The position numbers and the translations under genes were made by a program. Below, one piece after another: positions 15,446 through 40,304 of a stretch of 64,000 nucleotides of DNA (positions are counted from its first letter, which is position 1; the number at the start of each line of letters is the position of its first letter). The stretch is from a virus (Duplodnaviria > Caudoviricetes), in the IMG/VR virus record IMGVR_UViG_3300012016_000004, positions 1-64,000 of that record; one strand, given 5' to 3'. The notes beneath the pieces were generated by a model. It did no database searches. It was given only the letters and a program-made list of their open reading frames with translations, and was not told the DNA's origin.

Positions 15446-15549
15446 TGGTCGCTCCGGGAGGACTCGAACCCCCGACCAAATCATCATCGGCGAAGTGGAT
15501 TCCATGGAAAACCGACGATGCAAAGCTCTACCTACTGAGCTACGGAGCG
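15446..15549 (-). ncRNA. tRNA-like RNA with elongated anticodon arm (104 nt)
   Basis: Acceptor CGCTCCG/CGGAGCG plus A-CCA; D-arm GCTC-AGTAGGTA-GAGC; T-arm GGGGG-TTCGAGT-CCTCC; 51 nt between D- and T-arms instead of ~23. Confidence 0.7.
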
Positions 15550-33765: not shown

Positions 33766-34992
33766 CTATCGGACGATTCCTCGATACAGATAGTCGCGCA
33801 GCTCCGGCAAGGTCATCTTTCCGATGCCAAGGTAGTCAAGGCTGTACTTCGATGTGGCTCTGAGGTCTTTCTCATGGAAGGCAGAACCAATGACGATCAT
33901 CGAATCAATGACCGGAGTTGGAACGCCGAACTTCGCGCCCAGCTCGCTGTAAATCTTGCATCCGACCGGAATGTCCTCCGTGATGTAACGGTGGTTGATA
34001 TTGTCCGGTCCAGTATTGCCTTCATCGCACGGCTTGTCCAGAGGGAACACCACATTGTCCCTTCCGCTGGCATCAAGGCCCATGTACTCTGCCGTGAGGA
34101 TGCTGCGCCGGGAGAAGAACTGCTCGTACTCATACTCCGGGTACTTGATACCGATAGCATCGGCAATAGCGCACTCCTCTTTGTAGAACCGGTACTGTGT
34201 TCTGCAGATGGAAGGGCAAAGGCCATGCGAGTACATGGAATAGCTGCCGGGGGCATTCCCGTACACTTCCCAATTCTCCATGCTTGAAACGCCAAGCAAT
34301 GACGCAGGGACATGGATAACCGGGTTCACATTGGAGAAACCGATGTCAAGCATCGTATCGCCGACCACCGGACCGTCCCCCTTTGTCACAGACTCCATGC
34401 ACGGTAGATAGTCCACGGAATCCATGAACGTTGCAATGTCCGTCATCGGAAGGCAAGCACCGCGAAGACTGATGGCCCGATACTTAACACCAACATGGTT
34501 GGTCCAGAATCCGGCCACCTTCTCTATCCTCGTGCCGTAAGGAGCGGAAGACCATCCTCCAACGATAACATCCTTTGTACAACCGGCTTCACGCATCAGT
34601 TTCCTGAGCAGCAAGCTCGCGTAGTTGTCCGGGAACGTGTGGATAATCATTCCGTCCTCCAGCAGCGGGACGAGTTTCCGCAGGTAGTCTTCGTGGGCAA
34701 GCGCAGGGACAGAGATGAGTATGAGCTTTGCTCCTCTCACCGCCTCGGCCATGTCGTTCGTAACGACATCAAGAAATGCACGGCCAGAACGTTCGAATCC
34801 ATACAGATTGCGCTGGATACCGTCAAGCAGGATGCCGGTGCGCTCTACATACTGGATAGACTTCGGGCTACGCGAGTACAGACGGACCTCGCGGCCGGCC
34901 AGCTTGCAGTCAGCAGCGAGTGTCTTTCCGACGGCGCCACCACCGAGTACGGCGATGGGGCAGTCTTTCAGATAGGTTAAATTCTTCATCAT
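33766..34992 (-). CDS. NAD(P)-dependent opine (octopine/nopaline-type) dehydrogenase
   Basis: IAVLGGGAVG Rossmann fold; SNVNPVIH; C-terminal GPDNINHRYITEDIPVG...FGVPTPVIDSMI. Confidence 0.85.
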   Translation of the reverse strand: MMKNLTYLKDCPIAVLGGGAVGKTLAADCKLAGREVRLYSRSPKSIQYVERTGILLDGIQRNLYGFERSGRAFLDVVTNDMAEAVRGAKLILISVPALAHEDYLRKLVPLLEDGMIIHTFPDNYASLLLRKLMREAGCTKDVIVGGWSSAPYGTRIEKVAGFWTNHVGVKYRAISLRGACLPMTDIATFMDSVDYLPCMESVTKGDGPVVGDTMLDIGFSNVNPVIHVPASLLGVSSMENWEVYGNAPGSYSMYSHGLCPSICRTQYRFYKEECAIADAIGIKYPEYEYEQFFSRRSILTAEYMGLDASGRDNVVFPLDKPCDEGNTGPDNINHRYITEDIPVGCKIYSELGAKFGVPTPVIDSMIVIGSAFHEKDLRATSKYSLDYLGIGKMTLPELRDYLYRGIVR

Positions 34993-35372: not shown

Positions 35373-36224
35373 CTATTTTGTTGCGGTCTCAACGACCTTG
35401 CGAATAAATTCATCATATTCTATCCCGGCGCATTCTTTGGCGCAACCGGCCAGGTGGTCCGTGGCGCCGAGACATGGGTACAGATTGAGGTCAATGAGCA
35501 CGTAGTCTCCGTCCAGTGTCTGACGGAAGTCTATTCTCATGTATCTCTTGGCGCCGACCGCCCAGAAAGCGGCCCGTGCATAGCGGATCAGCTTATCATC
35601 AATCAGCGGATGGCAGACATCCACCTCCTTGAACTTGAGTTCGTGAGTGAGGATGCCGGACTTACTCTCATACTCAAGTATGACCGGCCAGCAATCCGGA
35701 ACGCCAGTCTTGTAATTGGCTACGAGGCCGACGGTGCAGTCGCGCCCTTCCACAAACTCCTCGATAATGGCATGGTCATTAAGGGTGGTCTCAATCTCCA
35801 CGACCTTCTTGCGGATTGCCTCGCGAGACGTGCAGATGGAGTCCTCGTCAATACAGTTGCTATCTTCGCCATGCATCGGCTTGACGAAATAACGGCCACC
35901 GTCACAAGGCTCTATGACGGTTTCTGGGACACGAACTCCGGCCTGCCGGAGCAAACCCTTACTGATTGCCTTATCGTGCGTCAGATGCACCGTTTCCCGG
36001 CTTTCTGCCGTAGTGTATGCGCACGTCGCAACAAGCTTGTCAATGATGGTGCGGTTCCTGGTCTGAACGAGAATCCTATCGCTGGGACAGATATAGTGAA
36101 AATCATCGTCCTCCGTGGCGAAGATTCTCTTGATATTGGAGCCGAACACCCTTTCAAGGTGGGCATACCTTTCGTCCGGCATGAAGGCGCTTTCCTCGCG
36201 CCTGGTGGTTACAACGTAAATCAT
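35373..36224 (-). CDS. ATP-grasp ligase (D-Ala-D-Ala ligase-like)
   Basis: DKAISKGLL..AGVRVP, YFVKPMHGEDS, IIEEFVEGRD.TV, RIDFR, DLNLYP. Confidence 0.85.
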   Translation of the reverse strand: MIYVVTTRREESAFMPDERYAHLERVFGSNIKRIFATEDDDFHYICPSDRILVQTRNRTIIDKLVATCAYTTAESRETVHLTHDKAISKGLLRQAGVRVPETVIEPCDGGRYFVKPMHGEDSNCIDEDSICTSREAIRKKVVEIETTLNDHAIIEEFVEGRDCTVGLVANYKTGVPDCWPVILEYESKSGILTHELKFKEVDVCHPLIDDKLIRYARAAFWAVGAKRYMRIDFRQTLDGDYVLIDLNLYPCLGATDHLAGCAKECAGIEYDEFIRKVVETATK

Positions 36225-36232
36225 ACTGATAC

Positions 36233-36964
36233 CTATTTCTTTCCCGCTGATTCAAAAGCCGTCATACTATCTCCTATTTGCATCAGAGCCAGCTCCAGAA
36301 TCTTCGAGAATATGATGTTTGAGGATTTGATTTCGAGCTTCTGATTTATCTCCTTGGAGAGCTTGAGATACAGCTCCTCGTTCGGCTCGTTCTCGGCCAT
36401 GACAACGACATCGCTTTTCTTGATAGCCTCACGCAACTCCCCGACCAGTTCCTCGAAATACTGCATGGCCTTGTTATACAGAACAAGCGTGACCGTGAAG
36501 GTCTCCTTCTCCAGAGGGGATGCGATGGAACCGACATCAATGTTGCCGATTTCGTCAATGTTGATGTGGGCGAACTTCTTGAAGTCAACACTCGAAATGC
36601 TTTCGAACAATTTCTTCAAGATGCTCTTGTTGTCTGTCCCATGCAAGGAGTTGTGGGAAAGCTGGATTGCTACAATCTCATCTTTCGTCAATTCTGACTC
36701 CAGGGCATAAAGAATGCCTATCTCTGTGAAGCCCTTCTTGCGACATGCATGGACACGATGATGACCACTGATGATAGTAAACCGGCCATTCTCCCGCTTA
36801 TAGCAGGTCGGCACCGAACTTAAACCACTCCGGCCGATGTTCTCGACCAACTGATTGAAGTCATCGTCAGACATCATGTTGGCATTCAACTCGGCATCGT
36901 CTATCATGTCGATGGGTACGACCTCGTACTTCCATCGGTTTTCCACTTTATCCTTTTGCTGCAT
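36233..36964 (-). CDS. ParB/Srx-like N-terminal domain protein
   Basis: LNANMMSDDDFNQLVENIGRSG...FTIISGHHRVHA...SHNSLHG. Confidence 0.85.
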   Translation of the reverse strand: MQQKDKVENRWKYEVVPIDMIDDAELNANMMSDDDFNQLVENIGRSGLSSVPTCYKRENGRFTIISGHHRVHACRKKGFTEIGILYALESELTKDEIVAIQLSHNSLHGTDNKSILKKLFESISSVDFKKFAHINIDEIGNIDVGSIASPLEKETFTVTLVLYNKAMQYFEELVGELREAIKKSDVVVMAENEPNEELYLKLSKEINQKLEIKSSNIIFSKILELALMQIGDSMTAFESAGKK

Positions 36965-39005
36965 CGTTGACAGATTTTAAGTATGTTTTGATGATTTCCT
37001 CGTTATCGGCAAACCGGCCAAGGTGGCCCACATAGAAAAGTGAGTTCGGAGTGCATCTCTCCTTCACCTTGTTGTACAGACCACGGTACTTCATGGACAC
37101 CGGCTTCTTCGTATAGGCAATAGTGAAGACTGACTCCGCTTCCATGCGATTGAAACGGGACAGAATCTTCTTTACCTCCTTTGACAGAAGGCACATCAGC
37201 ACCAGGCGGGACAGCCGGGGAACGGCATTGTTCGTGGCGAAATCACAGAGCTGCTCCATGTCATATTCCTTCGCCGGCGATTTGGTGAAGCCAAAACCAC
37301 CAAGCAGATAGTCTCCGTACATCACGACAAAGCTGAGCCTGGGGCTTTGGAATGAGTTGACCTTATACACGAAATGCTCCTGCAGGATTCGGAAGTCAAC
37401 GGCGCACCGTCTGATAGACAGCAGCGCGGGGTCATTGATATACAGATCATCCGGAGGCACCTTGTAATCCACCTGGTTCGGAAGCTGGTCGTTCACGATG
37501 ATGGCAGACGTCTTCGGCTTCGGATGGTTGCTATAAAGATACTTCCCGAAATCCTTCGAGCCATGCCCGGTGTCGAACAAGGCAATCTTGTGAAGGTTCA
37601 TCAGATACGGCGTCTCGCTGAACACATAGAAGTTCACATCGTCCGGGACACTCTCTACCAGGCCGTCATACTCCGTTGGCTTGACATCCCAGTCTTCCAC
37701 TTCGCAGTTCCTCCGATAGATGCCGAACGTGCGCTTTGAGGTCTTATCTCCGACCAGCTGGAAAAGGATGTTCTTTTCTCCGTTAGCGAGGGCATCATGG
37801 ACCGTCCCACGAACATACCGGCACGAGGTCAGCATGTCGATGTAGAACTGGGCCTGCTCACGCATGTTTGCGATGCTCTCGTGCATCTTCTCTCGGTAAG
37901 CGGCCACTTCATCATCCTTGAACTCGTTCCCGCCTTCTATGACCTTTCTGAGCTTCGTGACGATGAGAAGGAGCGACACCTGGCGCAAAGGCGTGTTGTC
38001 ATTATACTCCTCCAACCACGCGATGTCCTTCTTGAATGTCACGGTCATCTGTCCAGTGGCCAGCAGGTACAGCAGGTGGCAGTAATTGTTCTGATTGTAG
38101 ATGACAAGCTTCGGCACCTTCTTGAACAGAGCGCTCTCAAAGCCAAACATGTTCGGATTCACGCAGCAAATCTCATCGAGGTTCAAGTCAACGAGCGCCT
38201 TGACCATCTTCTGGTTGCTGTCGATGGCTTTCGCCATGAAGCATTCCTTGGGATGGTACGGATTGCCCATGTAAAGCAGCGGAGGGATGAGAGCCGGCAT
38301 CTCCTTCGGCAGCTTCGTAAGCGCCATGAACTCCTCGTAGGAGCGGATGGACTTGAAGTCTTCTTCGGTGTGATGGATGGCGTATTCAAACATCCGGTAG
38401 GCAGACAGAACACAGTTGAAGGCCAGTTCCGGAGACTGCGTAGCATTGAAGCAGCGGAACTCAACTGTCTTCGTCTTGAACACGGCTGCTATATTGATGA
38501 GGAAACGGATGTAGCCCTTCTTACTCTGGTTCGACAGAGTGTTTTGCAGGTCTTGCATCGTCTCGCACTTCTTCACACGCTCGTAGTAACTTGGAGTGAT
38601 GGCAGGCTGGCAGTTGAACACCTTGTCATTCCAGTCACCCCAGTTGTTATGCTGGTTGATATACGGCGTCAGAAAATACGTGAAGAAGAAAACGCGCTTC
38701 AATTCTTCAACGGTCAGGTCGCCGGCGTAGATGTGGACATGCGTATCGATAGACCACTTGAGCTTGCCACCATGCTTCTTCATCTGGTCGTATAGGTAAA
38801 CGAGGTCATCCCGGTCCTTCCAACAAAGATGAAGCGGAGGGGTGTTCACCTCGCCGCCGTATTGTTTGCTTACCTGGCCGTCGGTATTGAAAATTTGCTC
38901 ATCTGGGCTCCATGAATAACCTGCAGGGAGAGAGACGCGCGTTCGATCCACATTGCACATCTCTATCTCCATTCCGAAAGTCCTCTCTGTGATTTTCAGT
39001 TCCAT
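36948..39005 (-). CDS. Amidoligase (COOH-NH2 ligase) fused to a Mom-like GNAT domain
   Basis: N-terminal TFGMEIE, GGEVNTP, THVHI, TVEFRCF; C-terminal segment aligns by eye with phage Mu Mom motifs recalled from memory. Confidence 0.7.
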   Translation of the reverse strand: MELKITERTFGMEIEMCNVDRTRVSLPAGYSWSPDEQIFNTDGQVSKQYGGEVNTPPLHLCWKDRDDLVYLYDQMKKHGGKLKWSIDTHVHIYAGDLTVEELKRVFFFTYFLTPYINQHNNWGDWNDKVFNCQPAITPSYYERVKKCETMQDLQNTLSNQSKKGYIRFLINIAAVFKTKTVEFRCFNATQSPELAFNCVLSAYRMFEYAIHHTEEDFKSIRSYEEFMALTKLPKEMPALIPPLLYMGNPYHPKECFMAKAIDSNQKMVKALVDLNLDEICCVNPNMFGFESALFKKVPKLVIYNQNNYCHLLYLLATGQMTVTFKKDIAWLEEYNDNTPLRQVSLLLIVTKLRKVIEGGNEFKDDEVAAYREKMHESIANMREQAQFYIDMLTSCRYVRGTVHDALANGEKNILFQLVGDKTSKRTFGIYRRNCEVEDWDVKPTEYDGLVESVPDDVNFYVFSETPYLMNLHKIALFDTGHGSKDFGKYLYSNHPKPKTSAIIVNDQLPNQVDYKVPPDDLYINDPALLSIRRCAVDFRILQEHFVYKVNSFQSPRLSFVVMYGDYLLGGFGFTKSPAKEYDMEQLCDFATNNAVPRLSRLVLMCLLSKEVKKILSRFNRMEAESVFTIAYTKKPVSMKYRGLYNKVKERCTPNSLFYVGHLGRFADNEEIIKTYLKSVNDAAKG

Positions 39006-39026
39006 AATCCGCAGCTAATAAAAAAG

Positions 39027-39097
39027 AGCGGAGAGACCGATTCGAACAGCCGCCTCGATGCAGGAAGCACCGCGCTCTACCACTGAGCTATCTCCGC
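39027..39097 (-). tRNA. tRNA-Gly (TCC), atypical, CCA not encoded
   Basis: GCGGAGA/TCTCCGC acceptor, U73, D-arm GCTC-AGTGGTA-GAGC, anticodon arm CGGTG-CTTCCTG-CATCG, T-arm GGCTG-TTCGAAT-CGGTC. Confidence 0.85.
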
Positions 39098-39124
39098 TTT
39101 GGTGGGGACTTCATCGTCCCCTAT

Positions 39125-39571
39125 CTAAAACAACCCGTCAAAGAGGCTTGGCTCCTCAAGTACCGGCGTTTGCATCTGTTTTGCCACCTGCTCCTCAATC
39201 TGCTTCTGGTCCGGTTCCCATTCCTTGATTTCAAGTCCGGTCTCCCTGAGCATCCAGTCGGCGAACAGTCTGCGGTGGCAGAAGTCTCCAGGCTTTTCGT
39301 AACAGAGCAGAGCGGCATCCTTGCCTTGCGACATCCTTTCGATGTCAGCGATGACCTGGGCCGGATTCAGATGGCCTACGACATCTCTGTAGTACATCTG
39401 AATATACTGCTCCCTTGTTACCTCATCCTTCATCATATACCGTTTCGGCGCGAGGTACTGGAGATGCAATCCTTGAAAGAACTTCGGCGGCCAAAGTGCG
39501 ATTCCAATCGGGACTATGCCAGCCTCTCTTAATTTGCCCTGGCGGGCGAAATAGGATGTATAAATTTCCAT
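39125..39571 (-). CDS. DUF488-family protein
   Basis: MEIYTSYFA...LAP...ALLCYEKPGDFCHRRL; probable start 39571, just after a promoter. Confidence 0.8.
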   Translation of the reverse strand: MEIYTSYFARQGKLREAGIVPIGIALWPPKFFQGLHLQYLAPKRYMMKDEVTREQYIQMYYRDVVGHLNPAQVIADIERMSQGKDAALLCYEKPGDFCHRRLFADWMLRETGLEIKEWEPDQKQIEEQVAKQMQTPVLEEPSLFDGLF

Positions 39572-39586
39572 TTCCTTTTGTATATG

Positions 39587-39628
39587 CAAATCTACAAATA
39601 ATTTTCCAAATAGTTGCAAAATGAAACG
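39587..39628 (-). promoter_or_regulatory. Promoter of modification/terminase operon with palindromic operator
   Basis: TAGATTTG (39594-39587); AGTTGCA-N3-TGAAACG (39612-39628). Confidence 0.6.
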
Positions 39629-39647
39629 CTTTTTTGCAAAAAAATCG

Positions 39648-40304
39648 TCATTTTTTGGTCTGCAACTGCACTTCTTGCGGTTCTCCATGCGGACGGTCTT
39701 TGTACAGCCACTTAATCATCTTCTGGCAAAGAATGTCAACAGCCGCCACTATCGGCTTACTCTGATTCGGATTGACATGCCGGTCACTGACAGCACTGTG
39801 GAACAGATTCATGAACCTGGAGCTGGCCTTCTCGATTGCCTGGATATCCATGTTCTTCTGATTGTACAACGTTGATGTCTTATAGCAATTCCCCCAGACA
39901 ATCTGTGCAGACTGCGCCATGATGTTTGCAATCATCAGCTCTGCACATGTCTTCTGAATGTCGAAGTCAAGGTCCTGCAGGAAATTCATTATCTGGACTT
40001 TCGCAATCATCACATCGTTGGCAATCCAGTTGTCGAAGTCATCCATCTTGTCCACTACCTCATTCTGCTCATCCAGCGTGAATGCCCGGAAAAACTGCTT
40101 GTTCAGACGGTTGTATGCATCAATCCACCTCTGCTTCCACAACTTCATCTCATGCTTGCTTTCGAGCGGTCTGACCGTTTTAAGGAATATCTGATAATTG
40201 ACATCCAGCATCAGGAACGGAAGGATGGTCTCAAGGGTATGGCCCTGCACACGTTTCATGCCGATGGAAGCGAGCCATTTATCTACCATTTCATCGTTCG
40301 TCAT
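39648..40304 (-). CDS. Hypothetical protein
   Basis: 218-aa ORF. Confidence 0.65.
   Translation of the reverse strand: MTNDEMVDKWLASIGMKRVQGHTLETILPFLMLDVNYQIFLKTVRPLESKHEMKLWKQRWIDAYNRLNKQFFRAFTLDEQNEVVDKMDDFDNWIANDVMIAKVQIMNFLQDLDFDIQKTCAELMIANIMAQSAQIVWGNCYKTSTLYNQKNMDIQAIEKASSRFMNLFHSAVSDRHVNPNQSKPIVAAVDILCQKMIKWLYKDRPHGEPQEVQLQTKK

Follow-up and report, generated by a model that had tools for sequence, protein, structure and literature searches.

A tRNA-Gly gene with anticodon UCC was analyzed in a 64,000-nt stretch of viral DNA (IMG/VR record IMGVR_UViG_3300012016_000004, positions 1 to 64,000; hereafter the window), which holds most of the complete 72-kb genome of a gut phage. The gene stands immediately before the gene of a 685-aa fusion protein that carries an amidoligase domain, a DNA adenine methylase-like (Dam-like) domain and a GNAT domain of family PF22559. 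The evidence below indicates that the main job of this tRNA is probably to bring activated glycine to the phage's own DNA-modifying enzyme and not to the ribosome. With rather less assurance, we lean towards the view that it represents a widespread class of virus-encoded "cofactor" tRNAs, with bodies that can be charged with glycine and decoding largely given up, which lie beside Dam-like+GNAT (PF22559) genes in phages of at least five bacterial phyla and would supply glycyl groups privately for the hypermodification of DNA.

Structure of the tRNA-Gly gene

ARAGORN called a single tRNA in the window, a tRNA-Gly (UCC) at 39026-39097, and Rfam family RF00005 matched it over its full length at 39027-39097 with 52.1 bits (gathering score 29). 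It is read on the minus strand, from 39097 to 39027. The acceptor stem was GCGGAGA/UCUCCGC, which gives G1-C72, C2-G71 and G3-C70 and is followed by U73; together with C35 and C36 these made the bacterial glycine identity set complete, and the same set was present in the tRNA-Gly genes of Prevotella and Muribaculaceae hosts. The D arm was normal with G18 and G19 present, the anticodon stem was CGGUG/CAUCG, the T stem consisted of G49-C65, G50-U64, C51-G63, U52-G62 and G53-C61, and the T loop was UUCGAAU. CCA was not encoded, as was also the case for the Prevotella host tRNA-Gly genes.

The anticodon loop was C32 U33 U34 C35 C36 U37 G38. The minimum free energy fold (ViennaRNA) was a clean cloverleaf in which C32 paired with G38, so that the anticodon stem had 6 bp and the loop, UUCCU, only 5 nt. 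A canonical elongator loop is an open 7-nt loop with U33, a purine at position 37 and no Watson-Crick 32-38 pair; the window tRNA kept U33, but it had U37 and, in this fold, the C32-G38 pair. The loops of host tRNA-Gly in Prevotella and Muribaculaceae genomes were UUGCCAA, UUCCCAA and CUUCCAA, and neither U37 nor the C32-G38 pair occurred in these decoding tRNAs.

A first-pass annotation, made from the sequence alone, had listed intact glycine identity elements (G1-C72, UCC anticodon, U73), U37 and G38, and two G-U pairs in the T stem (G50-U64 and U52-G62). The sequence bore out all of these, and the C32-G38 pair was added. It had also placed the end of the tRNA 21 nt before the start codon of the fusion gene; the spacing was right (tRNA 3' end at 39027, ATG at 39005), with the minus-strand orientation, left unstated there, now supplied.

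Conservation of tRNA-Gly beside PF22559 genes

The loci compared encode a PF22559 GNAT domain joined to a Dam-like domain, some having an amidoligase domain as well and others lacking it; 199 were evaluable, and clustering of the GNAT domain at 70% identity gave 56 evaluable lineages. A Gly-type tRNA was found in 123 of the 199 loci, nearly always no more than 2 kb upstream of the GNAT gene, and other tRNAs only were found in 5. By lineage, 20 of the 56 clusters had a Gly-type tRNA and none had another isotype alone. Conservation next to the GNAT gene had been set in the first-pass annotation beforehand as a check on a non-ribosomal role, and these counts answered it strongly.

In five metagenomic relatives (L002-L006), whose fusion proteins were 84-86% identical, the tRNA-Gly occupied the identical gap between the DUF488 gene and the fusion gene. 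An abundant group of relatives at 45-47% identity had one or two tandem tRNA-Gly genes, located either directly 5' of the fusion gene or about 1.1 kb 5' of it with an opine dehydrogenase gene between, and still inside the module, right after DUF488. A tRNA-Gly was also present in relatives down to 24% protein identity (L117, L144), and the same arrangement was found in prophages of named Bacteroidota (Prevotella, Paludibacteraceae, Muribaculaceae, Alistipes and Dysgonomonas) and in a Clostridiaceae metagenome-assembled genome.

A second architecture had no amidoligase and consisted of a Dam-like-phage1 domain followed by the same GNAT domain in a protein of about 440-480 aa. Among 80 diverse IMG/VR loci of this two-domain type, 32 had a tRNA, mostly 15-170 nt upstream: 31 were Gly, one was a Gly-type body with a 6-nt anticodon loop, and no other isotype was seen. 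Across both architectures, the tRNA-bearing loci included records labelled Anaerolineaceae, Vicinamibacterales and Oscillospiraceae, and their host labels covered Bacteroidota, Clostridia, Chloroflexota and Acidobacteriota, in addition to cultured mycobacteriophages. In Mycobacterium phage Jeon and seven close relatives, all cultured, an annotated tRNA-Gly(tcc) stood directly before gp68 (PF22555+PF22559), and a ParB-like gene followed it.

Some loci of the family differed in detail. In Gordonia phages Clawz and Jollymon (L371, L372), a 170-220-nt unannotated gap preceded the PF22555+PF22559 gene, and neither ARAGORN nor Rfam found a tRNA in it; in Jollymon and Sting this gene was annotated as a methyltransferase. 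At L040, L076, L077, L080, L087 and L118 (about 1400-1900 in each), the tRNA arrays at the site included a family of odd tRNAs with an acceptor strand that starts UAGCAGU and A or G at position 33. Their anticodons were GAU, GCU, GUU and CCU, and the "Ser" members had no long variable arm.

Features kept and lost in the tRNA set

From the PF22559 loci, 93 distinct Gly-type tRNAs were parsed, of which 89 were readable in register. G1-C72, C2-G71 and U73 were kept in 89/89 and G3-C70 in 87/89, and C35 and C36 were kept in every 7-nt anticodon loop. The remaining stem positions varied by compensatory changes that kept the pairing, so the cloverleaf was maintained.

At least one anomaly of the anticodon loop was found in 65 of the 93 tRNAs (70%). 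The loop had 6 or 8 nt in 12 tRNAs, U33 was lost in 18, A34 was present in 26, a pyrimidine stood at position 37 in 22, and a C32-G38 (or G-C) pair was present in 38. The T loop was TGC instead of TTC in 21/89, among them those tRNAs of the 45-47% group that share the acceptor stem of the window tRNA, and the D loop was without GG in 34/89. Within the window's own clade the anticodon was UCC or GCC, A33 occurred in two members, and C35-C36-U37-G38 was invariant. In many loci of the two-domain type, C32, a pyrimidine at 37 and G38 came together again independently, as in CUACCCG, CUUCCCG and CAUCCUG. Judged from these sequences, selection appears to preserve the features needed for charging and not those needed for decoding.

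Two Gly-type bodies (GCG...CGC-U73) at L026 2802-2875 and L027 1903-1975 carried the anticodons ACG and UCU through single changes at position 36, and ARAGORN called them Arg. Their sequences suggest that there is no decoding constraint on the anticodon.

Predicted EF-Tu binding

EF-Tu binding was calculated with the additive T-stem model of Schrader and Uhlenbeck (PMC3239215, Table 2), which uses the pairs 49-65, 50-64 and 51-63. The window tRNA gave -8.6 kcal/mol, a value that is uncertain because G49-C65/G50-U64 stems can be non-additive (PMC3239215). The bacterial class means are -10.8 kcal/mol (standard deviation 0.68) for Gly-UCC and -11.0 kcal/mol for Gly-GCC and Gly-CCC, and the staphylococcal donor (cell-wall) tRNA has -9.5 kcal/mol in the same model (PMC3239215). 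The predicted affinity of the window tRNA was thus 2.2 kcal/mol under its class mean and outside the range of a typical tRNA-Gly (about -10.8 to -11.0). The 46 computable relatives had a median of -9.5 kcal/mol, with 37 at -9.5 or weaker, and the mean of the two-domain set was -9.53 kcal/mol. In two Prevotella genomes and one Muribaculaceae genome with such prophages, the host tRNA-Gly genes (GCC, CCC and UCC) all gave -11.2 kcal/mol, and all had the strong pairs G49-U65, C50-G64 and G51-C63 and canonical loops. By calculation, therefore, an extra tRNA-Gly with a weak EF-Tu T stem exists beside normal host tRNA-Gly.

In the second of the tandem tRNA-Gly genes (CCC or ACC; L007 7898-7972 and about 45 related loci), A51 was always opposite C, A or G63 and never U, often together with a G5-G68 mismatch. 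The A51-N63 mismatch was considered as a means of EF-Tu avoidance and dropped, as the published table gives A-C +0.2 kcal/mol and A51-C63 near-normal binding.

Comparison with staphylococcal non-proteogenic tRNA-Gly

In staphylococci, non-proteogenic tRNA-Gly (NP1-NP3) serves FmhB, FemA and FemB in building the pentaglycine bridge, and its hallmarks are a TGC T loop and loss of G18 G19 (Rietmeyer et al. 2021, PMC7826273). The phage tRNA resembles it in being an extra tRNA-Gly that keeps GlyRS identity and has a weak EF-Tu T stem (calculated or measured). The staphylococcal tRNA serves a GNAT-fold aminoacyl transferase off the ribosome, and the phage tRNA is presumed from gene adjacency to do likewise. 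Many relatives of the window tRNA show both staphylococcal hallmarks, whereas the window copy itself keeps TTC (UUCGAAU) and G18 G19 and has its oddity in the anticodon loop (U37, C32-G38). In contrast to the staphylococcal tRNA, the phage tRNA is virus-encoded and adjoins its presumed enzyme, its presumed acceptor is DNA and not a peptidoglycan precursor, its lineage is unrelated, and in many phage relatives a decodable loop is gone altogether.

The presumed partner enzyme

Mom of phage Mu moves glycine from Gly-tRNA-Gly to adenine N6 in double-stranded DNA; it accepts all three E. coli Gly isoacceptors, refuses Gly-tRNA-Ala and probably reads the acceptor end of the tRNA (Silva et al. 2026, PMC13219725). 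The C-terminal domain of the window fusion gave an AlphaFold2 model with a predicted local distance difference test score (pLDDT) of 87.5 and a GNAT fold. Mu Mom (8bv8) ranked 4-5 in Foldseek against this domain and first in VIA-align (Z 10.7, root-mean-square deviation 3.1 A over 135 residues), so that Mom is nominally its best structural match. Searched against PDB sequences, the GNAT domain had no matches. PF22559, which comprised 324 clusters at 50% identity, had an invariant set of its own (D, an S-x-K-Y-R motif and Y), and 734 homologues shared the fusion architecture.

The label "Mom-like", attached to the fusion in the first-pass annotation, held for the fold (AlphaFold2, VIA-align) and failed for the family, which is PF22559 and not PF25680. 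On this sequence analysis the window enzyme is Mom-like in fold and context and is not a member of the Mom family. Both are phage enzymes with a GNAT fold. However, Mom is a single-domain enzyme that uses host tRNAs, whereas in the window the GNAT domain shares one protein with Dam-like and amidoligase domains, and the gene belongs to a module that also has ParB-like, ATP-grasp, opine dehydrogenase and DUF488 genes. That the fusion enzyme acts on DNA is suggested by its Dam-like domain and by the ParB-like partner.

Organization of the module

On the minus strand the order was DUF488, a GC hairpin, the tRNA, a 21-nt spacer, the 685-aa fusion, a ParB-like protein, an ATP-grasp ligase, a small open reading frame (ORF), an opine dehydrogenase and the large terminase. 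The features were as follows (all on the minus strand):

39125-39571, minus: DUF488 gene (PF22751/PF04343); Pfam, alignments, synteny
39104-39121, minus: GC-rich hairpin with stem GGGGAC/GUCCCC and a 6-nt loop, past the DUF488 stop codon and ahead of the tRNA 5' end; sequence, alignment
39027-39097, minus: tRNA-Gly(UCC); ARAGORN, Rfam (52.1 bits), fold, same site kept in relatives L002-L006
39006-39026, minus: 21-nt spacer (C74, then a T-run) from the tRNA 3' end to the fusion start codon; sequence
36948-39005, minus: 685-aa fusion, Amidoligase_2 + Dam-like + GNAT-phage-like, proposed user of the tRNA; Pfam, PHROGs
38439-38876, minus: Amidoligase_2 domain, residues 44-189; PF12224, E 1.5e-13
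37785-38294, minus: DNA adenine methylase-like domain, residues 238-407; PF22556, E 2.8e-33
36975-37397, minus: GNAT-phage-like domain, residues 537-677, proposed glycyl transferase; PF22559, E 1.7e-29
36233-36964, minus: ParB-like protein, conserved module member; PHROGs, synteny
35373-36224, minus: ATP-grasp (D-Ala-D-Ala ligase-like) protein, conserved module member; Pfam, NCBIfam, synteny
33766-34992, minus: opine dehydrogenase-like protein, module member, placed in many relatives after the tRNA(s) and before the fusion gene; Pfam

The DUF488 ORF extends without a stop as far as 39688, but translation likely starts at the Met codon at 39571, because the relatives are 132-149 aa long. The DUF488 family kept a C-x7-C-H-R motif. 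No PDB sequence match and no NCBIfam match was found for it, and its AlphaFold2 model (pLDDT 83) gave weak fold matches (Z at most 6.2), with many Cys-phosphatase folds at Z 4-5.5.

The region 39098-39125 of the window contained the GC hairpin; in L002-L007 it was instead AT-rich, with TAGAATTG or TAGAATATTG about 8-15 nt 5' of the tRNA. We take these two elements to resemble the Bacteroidota -7 promoter motif TAnnTTTG. A promoter and terminator scan of 38900-39800 found none, with a sigma-70 consensus that is ill-suited to Bacteroidota.

Logan contigs from four RNA-library runs on 36900-39800 covered DUF488 (39134-39566) and the 5' part of the fusion (up to 39005/39032). No contig reached into 39033-39133, where the tRNA and the hairpin lie. 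Such a gap proves nothing, libraries of this kind lose small structured RNAs, and some DNA may have been carried over.

Proposed mechanism

The scheme that we infer, from sequence and analogy, for charging, EF-Tu avoidance, glycyl transfer by the GNAT domain and the nature of the adduct is as follows. The tRNA would be transcribed with the DUF488-tRNA-fusion-ParB-ATP-grasp module, excised by RNase P and 3' processing enzymes, and given its CCA by the host. Host GlyRS would then charge it, since G1-C72, C2-G71, G3-C70, U73, C35 and C36 are all kept. The T stem (G50-U64, C51-G63) and the closed anticodon loop (C32-G38, U37) may cut its use by EF-Tu and the ribosome, as the binding model and the analogy suggest; a donor that binds EF-Tu weakly and has a closed or damaged anticodon loop would be excluded from translation, as in staphylococci. 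The C-terminal GNAT domain would take the glycyl group from the tRNA 3' end and place it on a base, as Mu Mom does, and the acceptor is probably adenine N6 presented by the Dam-like domain. The amidoligase, ATP-grasp and opine dehydrogenase partners might, more speculatively, then extend the adduct. With a donor tRNA of its own, the phage could keep DNA modification going and neither deplete nor rely on the Gly-tRNA that the host uses for translation.

The combination of a Mom-fold enzyme, a Dam-like fusion and a tRNA with glycine identity at its acceptor end and at C35/C36 is most simply read as Mom chemistry with a privately supplied donor. The non-ribosomal glycyl-donor role that the first-pass annotation had proposed gained support from the conserved pairing with the GNAT gene, the GlyRS identity kept while decoding features decay, the predicted weak EF-Tu T stems, the TGC T loops of relatives and the Mom precedent (PMC13219725).

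Several results weigh against the glycyl-donor role. The structural match to Mom was tied, within one Z unit, with many ordinary GNATs. By Pfam, the fusion protein matched PF22559 and not the Mom family PF25680, and Mu Mom matched PF25680 only; BLASTP between the window GNAT domain and Mu Mom gave no match, and hhalign gave a probability of 0.4%. No sequence kinship to Mom was found, and the link to Mom is therefore one of fold and analogy. Mom has the catalytic residues R111, S124, D149 and R151 and a helix-turn-helix-like insertion (PMC13219725), and equivalents of these residues in PF22559 could not be mapped. A control set of 80 Mu-type Mom loci (361 kb) contained no tRNA genes. No tRNA whatever was present in 71 of the 199 PF22559 loci, which shows that it is dispensable in some lineages; L001 and L014 (71-73% identity) and four Gordonia phages were among the relatives without one. 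A small sub-lineage had mixed tRNA arrays at the same site. Faecalibacterium phage FP_Brigit (L373, MG711465) had an unannotated canonical tRNA-Lys(CUU) at 2238-2314, 163 nt upstream of its PF22555+PF22559 gene (Rfam 62.3 bits, A73, CCA encoded). This was the only non-Gly tRNA seen directly before such a gene; it could be there by chance or mark a lineage that uses lysyl-tRNA. The non-additivity of G49-C65/G50-U64 stems also counts here. Finally, the window copy is among the more canonical-looking members, so that it could take some part in GGA/GGG decoding.

Alternative explanations

The alternative that survives best, although it is unlikely, is an ordinary decoding tRNA-Gly(UCC) that serves codon supply or translation after host shut-off and sits at an intergenic site where this phage family tolerates tRNA genes or has a hot spot for them. 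It would suit the window tRNA taken alone, with its 7-nt loop, U33, UUC T loop, G18 G19 and good Rfam score, as well as the share of GGA and GGG (34% of the phage Gly codons) and the few relatives whose arrays in this place include tRNAs for Met, Asn, Lys, Arg, Ser or Ile. However, it does not explain why the isotype is Gly in nearly every tRNA-bearing lineage, including unrelated phages of different gene architecture, or why many relatives are unable to decode normally (6- or 8-nt loops, a base other than U33, A34). U37 with the C32-G38 pair is foreign to host decoding tRNA-Gly, and the predicted EF-Tu affinity is low for the class. The anticodons had no consistent link with Gly codon use, although this is weak evidence, and the relative richest in GGA had no tRNA.

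An improbable alternative, ranked below ordinary decoding, is that the tRNA serves the module in another way, either as a substrate or scaffold for DUF488, the amidoligase or a GNAT that acts on the aminoacyl or peptidyl group, or mainly as an RNase P/Z processing signal that splits the DUF488 and fusion messages. In the module relatives DUF488 was always directly upstream of the tRNA, so that the partner could be DUF488 or the whole module, and this too counts against the GNAT domain as the user of the tRNA. GNAT toxins act on the aminoacyl group of Gly-tRNA, and RNA-library contigs of two studies ended at 39134-39141, upstream of the tRNA, which is a weak hint of processing. For a processing signal, however, the Gly identity set would be superfluous, yet it was invariant over 89 sequences. 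The Dam-like fusion and the ParB-like partner argue for a DNA target, and no DUF488 gene was beside the tRNA at several tRNA-bearing two-domain loci (L133, L151 and Jeon).

Phage tRNAs with changed anticodon loops that evade host anticodon nucleases have been described. A counter-defence tRNA of this kind would be a replacement or decoy for host tRNA-Gly hit by anticodon nucleases, Gly-tRNA-acetylating GNAT toxins or the tRNA-Gly-specific toxSAS FaRel2, with an altered loop that escapes attack; of the three alternatives we hold it to be the least probable. Variation in the tRNA set was indeed concentrated in the anticodon loop, and the window tRNA shares with the nuclease-evading tRNAs that it is phage-encoded and has a loop departing from that of the host. 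The nuclease-evading tRNAs, however, are still decoders and usually lie in arrays of many isotypes, whereas here the link is between one isotype and one enzyme gene, with many members unable to decode. A replacement must decode, which many relatives cannot do, and a decoy needs no Dam-like+GNAT neighbour, yet the linkage was found in at least 20 lineages. The weakened T stems and TGC T loops concern the elbow and EF-Tu and not the anticodon. Several toxins are known to target tRNA-Gly (PMC11559606, PMC7595197, PMC9177977).

Three further candidates were rejected: chance association of tRNA-Gly with the GNAT gene by the isotype statistics, an attP or integration remnant because the tRNA is complete, has no adjacent integrase and is conserved inside an enzyme module, and a primer for the reverse transcriptase of the phage's diversity-generating retroelement because the tRNA associates with the GNAT gene and not with the reverse transcriptase.

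Implications of the proposed private glycyl donor

The usual reading of phage tRNA genes is that they serve codon usage or counter host defences. In the literature searched, no link of phage tRNA-Gly genes to DNA-modifying GNATs was found, although a prior mention in a 2013 comparative-genomics paper on DNA base modification systems is possible, and no mention of PF22559, PF22555 or PF22556 was found. The Mom paper (PMC13219725) and the "Quimbyviridae" paper contained nothing on phage tRNA-Gly genes beside such enzymes.

If the glycyl-donor role is correct, no virus before this one would have been seen to bring a tRNA as co-substrate for modifying its own DNA, Mom chemistry would extend beyond Mu, and PF22559 would form, independently, a second family of DNA-modifying GNATs that depend on aminoacyl-tRNA. 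One could then predict the amino acid used from the isotype of the neighbouring tRNA, and the tRNA-Lys of FP_Brigit hints at a lysyl variant. Gly-tRNA becomes a testable donor for a large uncharacterised enzyme family present at hundreds of phage loci, and the "translation-avoiding" features of tRNA-Gly would have evolved convergently in viruses and staphylococci. Tractable systems include Jeon and its relatives on M. smegmatis and the prophages in Prevotella vespertina, Prevotella sp. KH2C16 and Muribaculaceae MF13079. Orthogonal aminoacyl carriers might also be made from tRNA bodies that can be charged but do not decode.

Other observations

In two relatives, head-module neighbours of the modification module carried ADP-ribosyl-transferase toxin-like domains (PF03496; L002 13113-14058 and L012 12687-13283), one of which ended a large MuF-like protein. 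A second Rfam tRNA match was present in the window at 15449-15549 on the minus strand (41.9 bits), which ARAGORN missed. Its acceptor, D and T arms were normal, position 73 was A and CCA was encoded, but a 45-nt region with a long 9-bp stem replaced the 17-nt anticodon arm.

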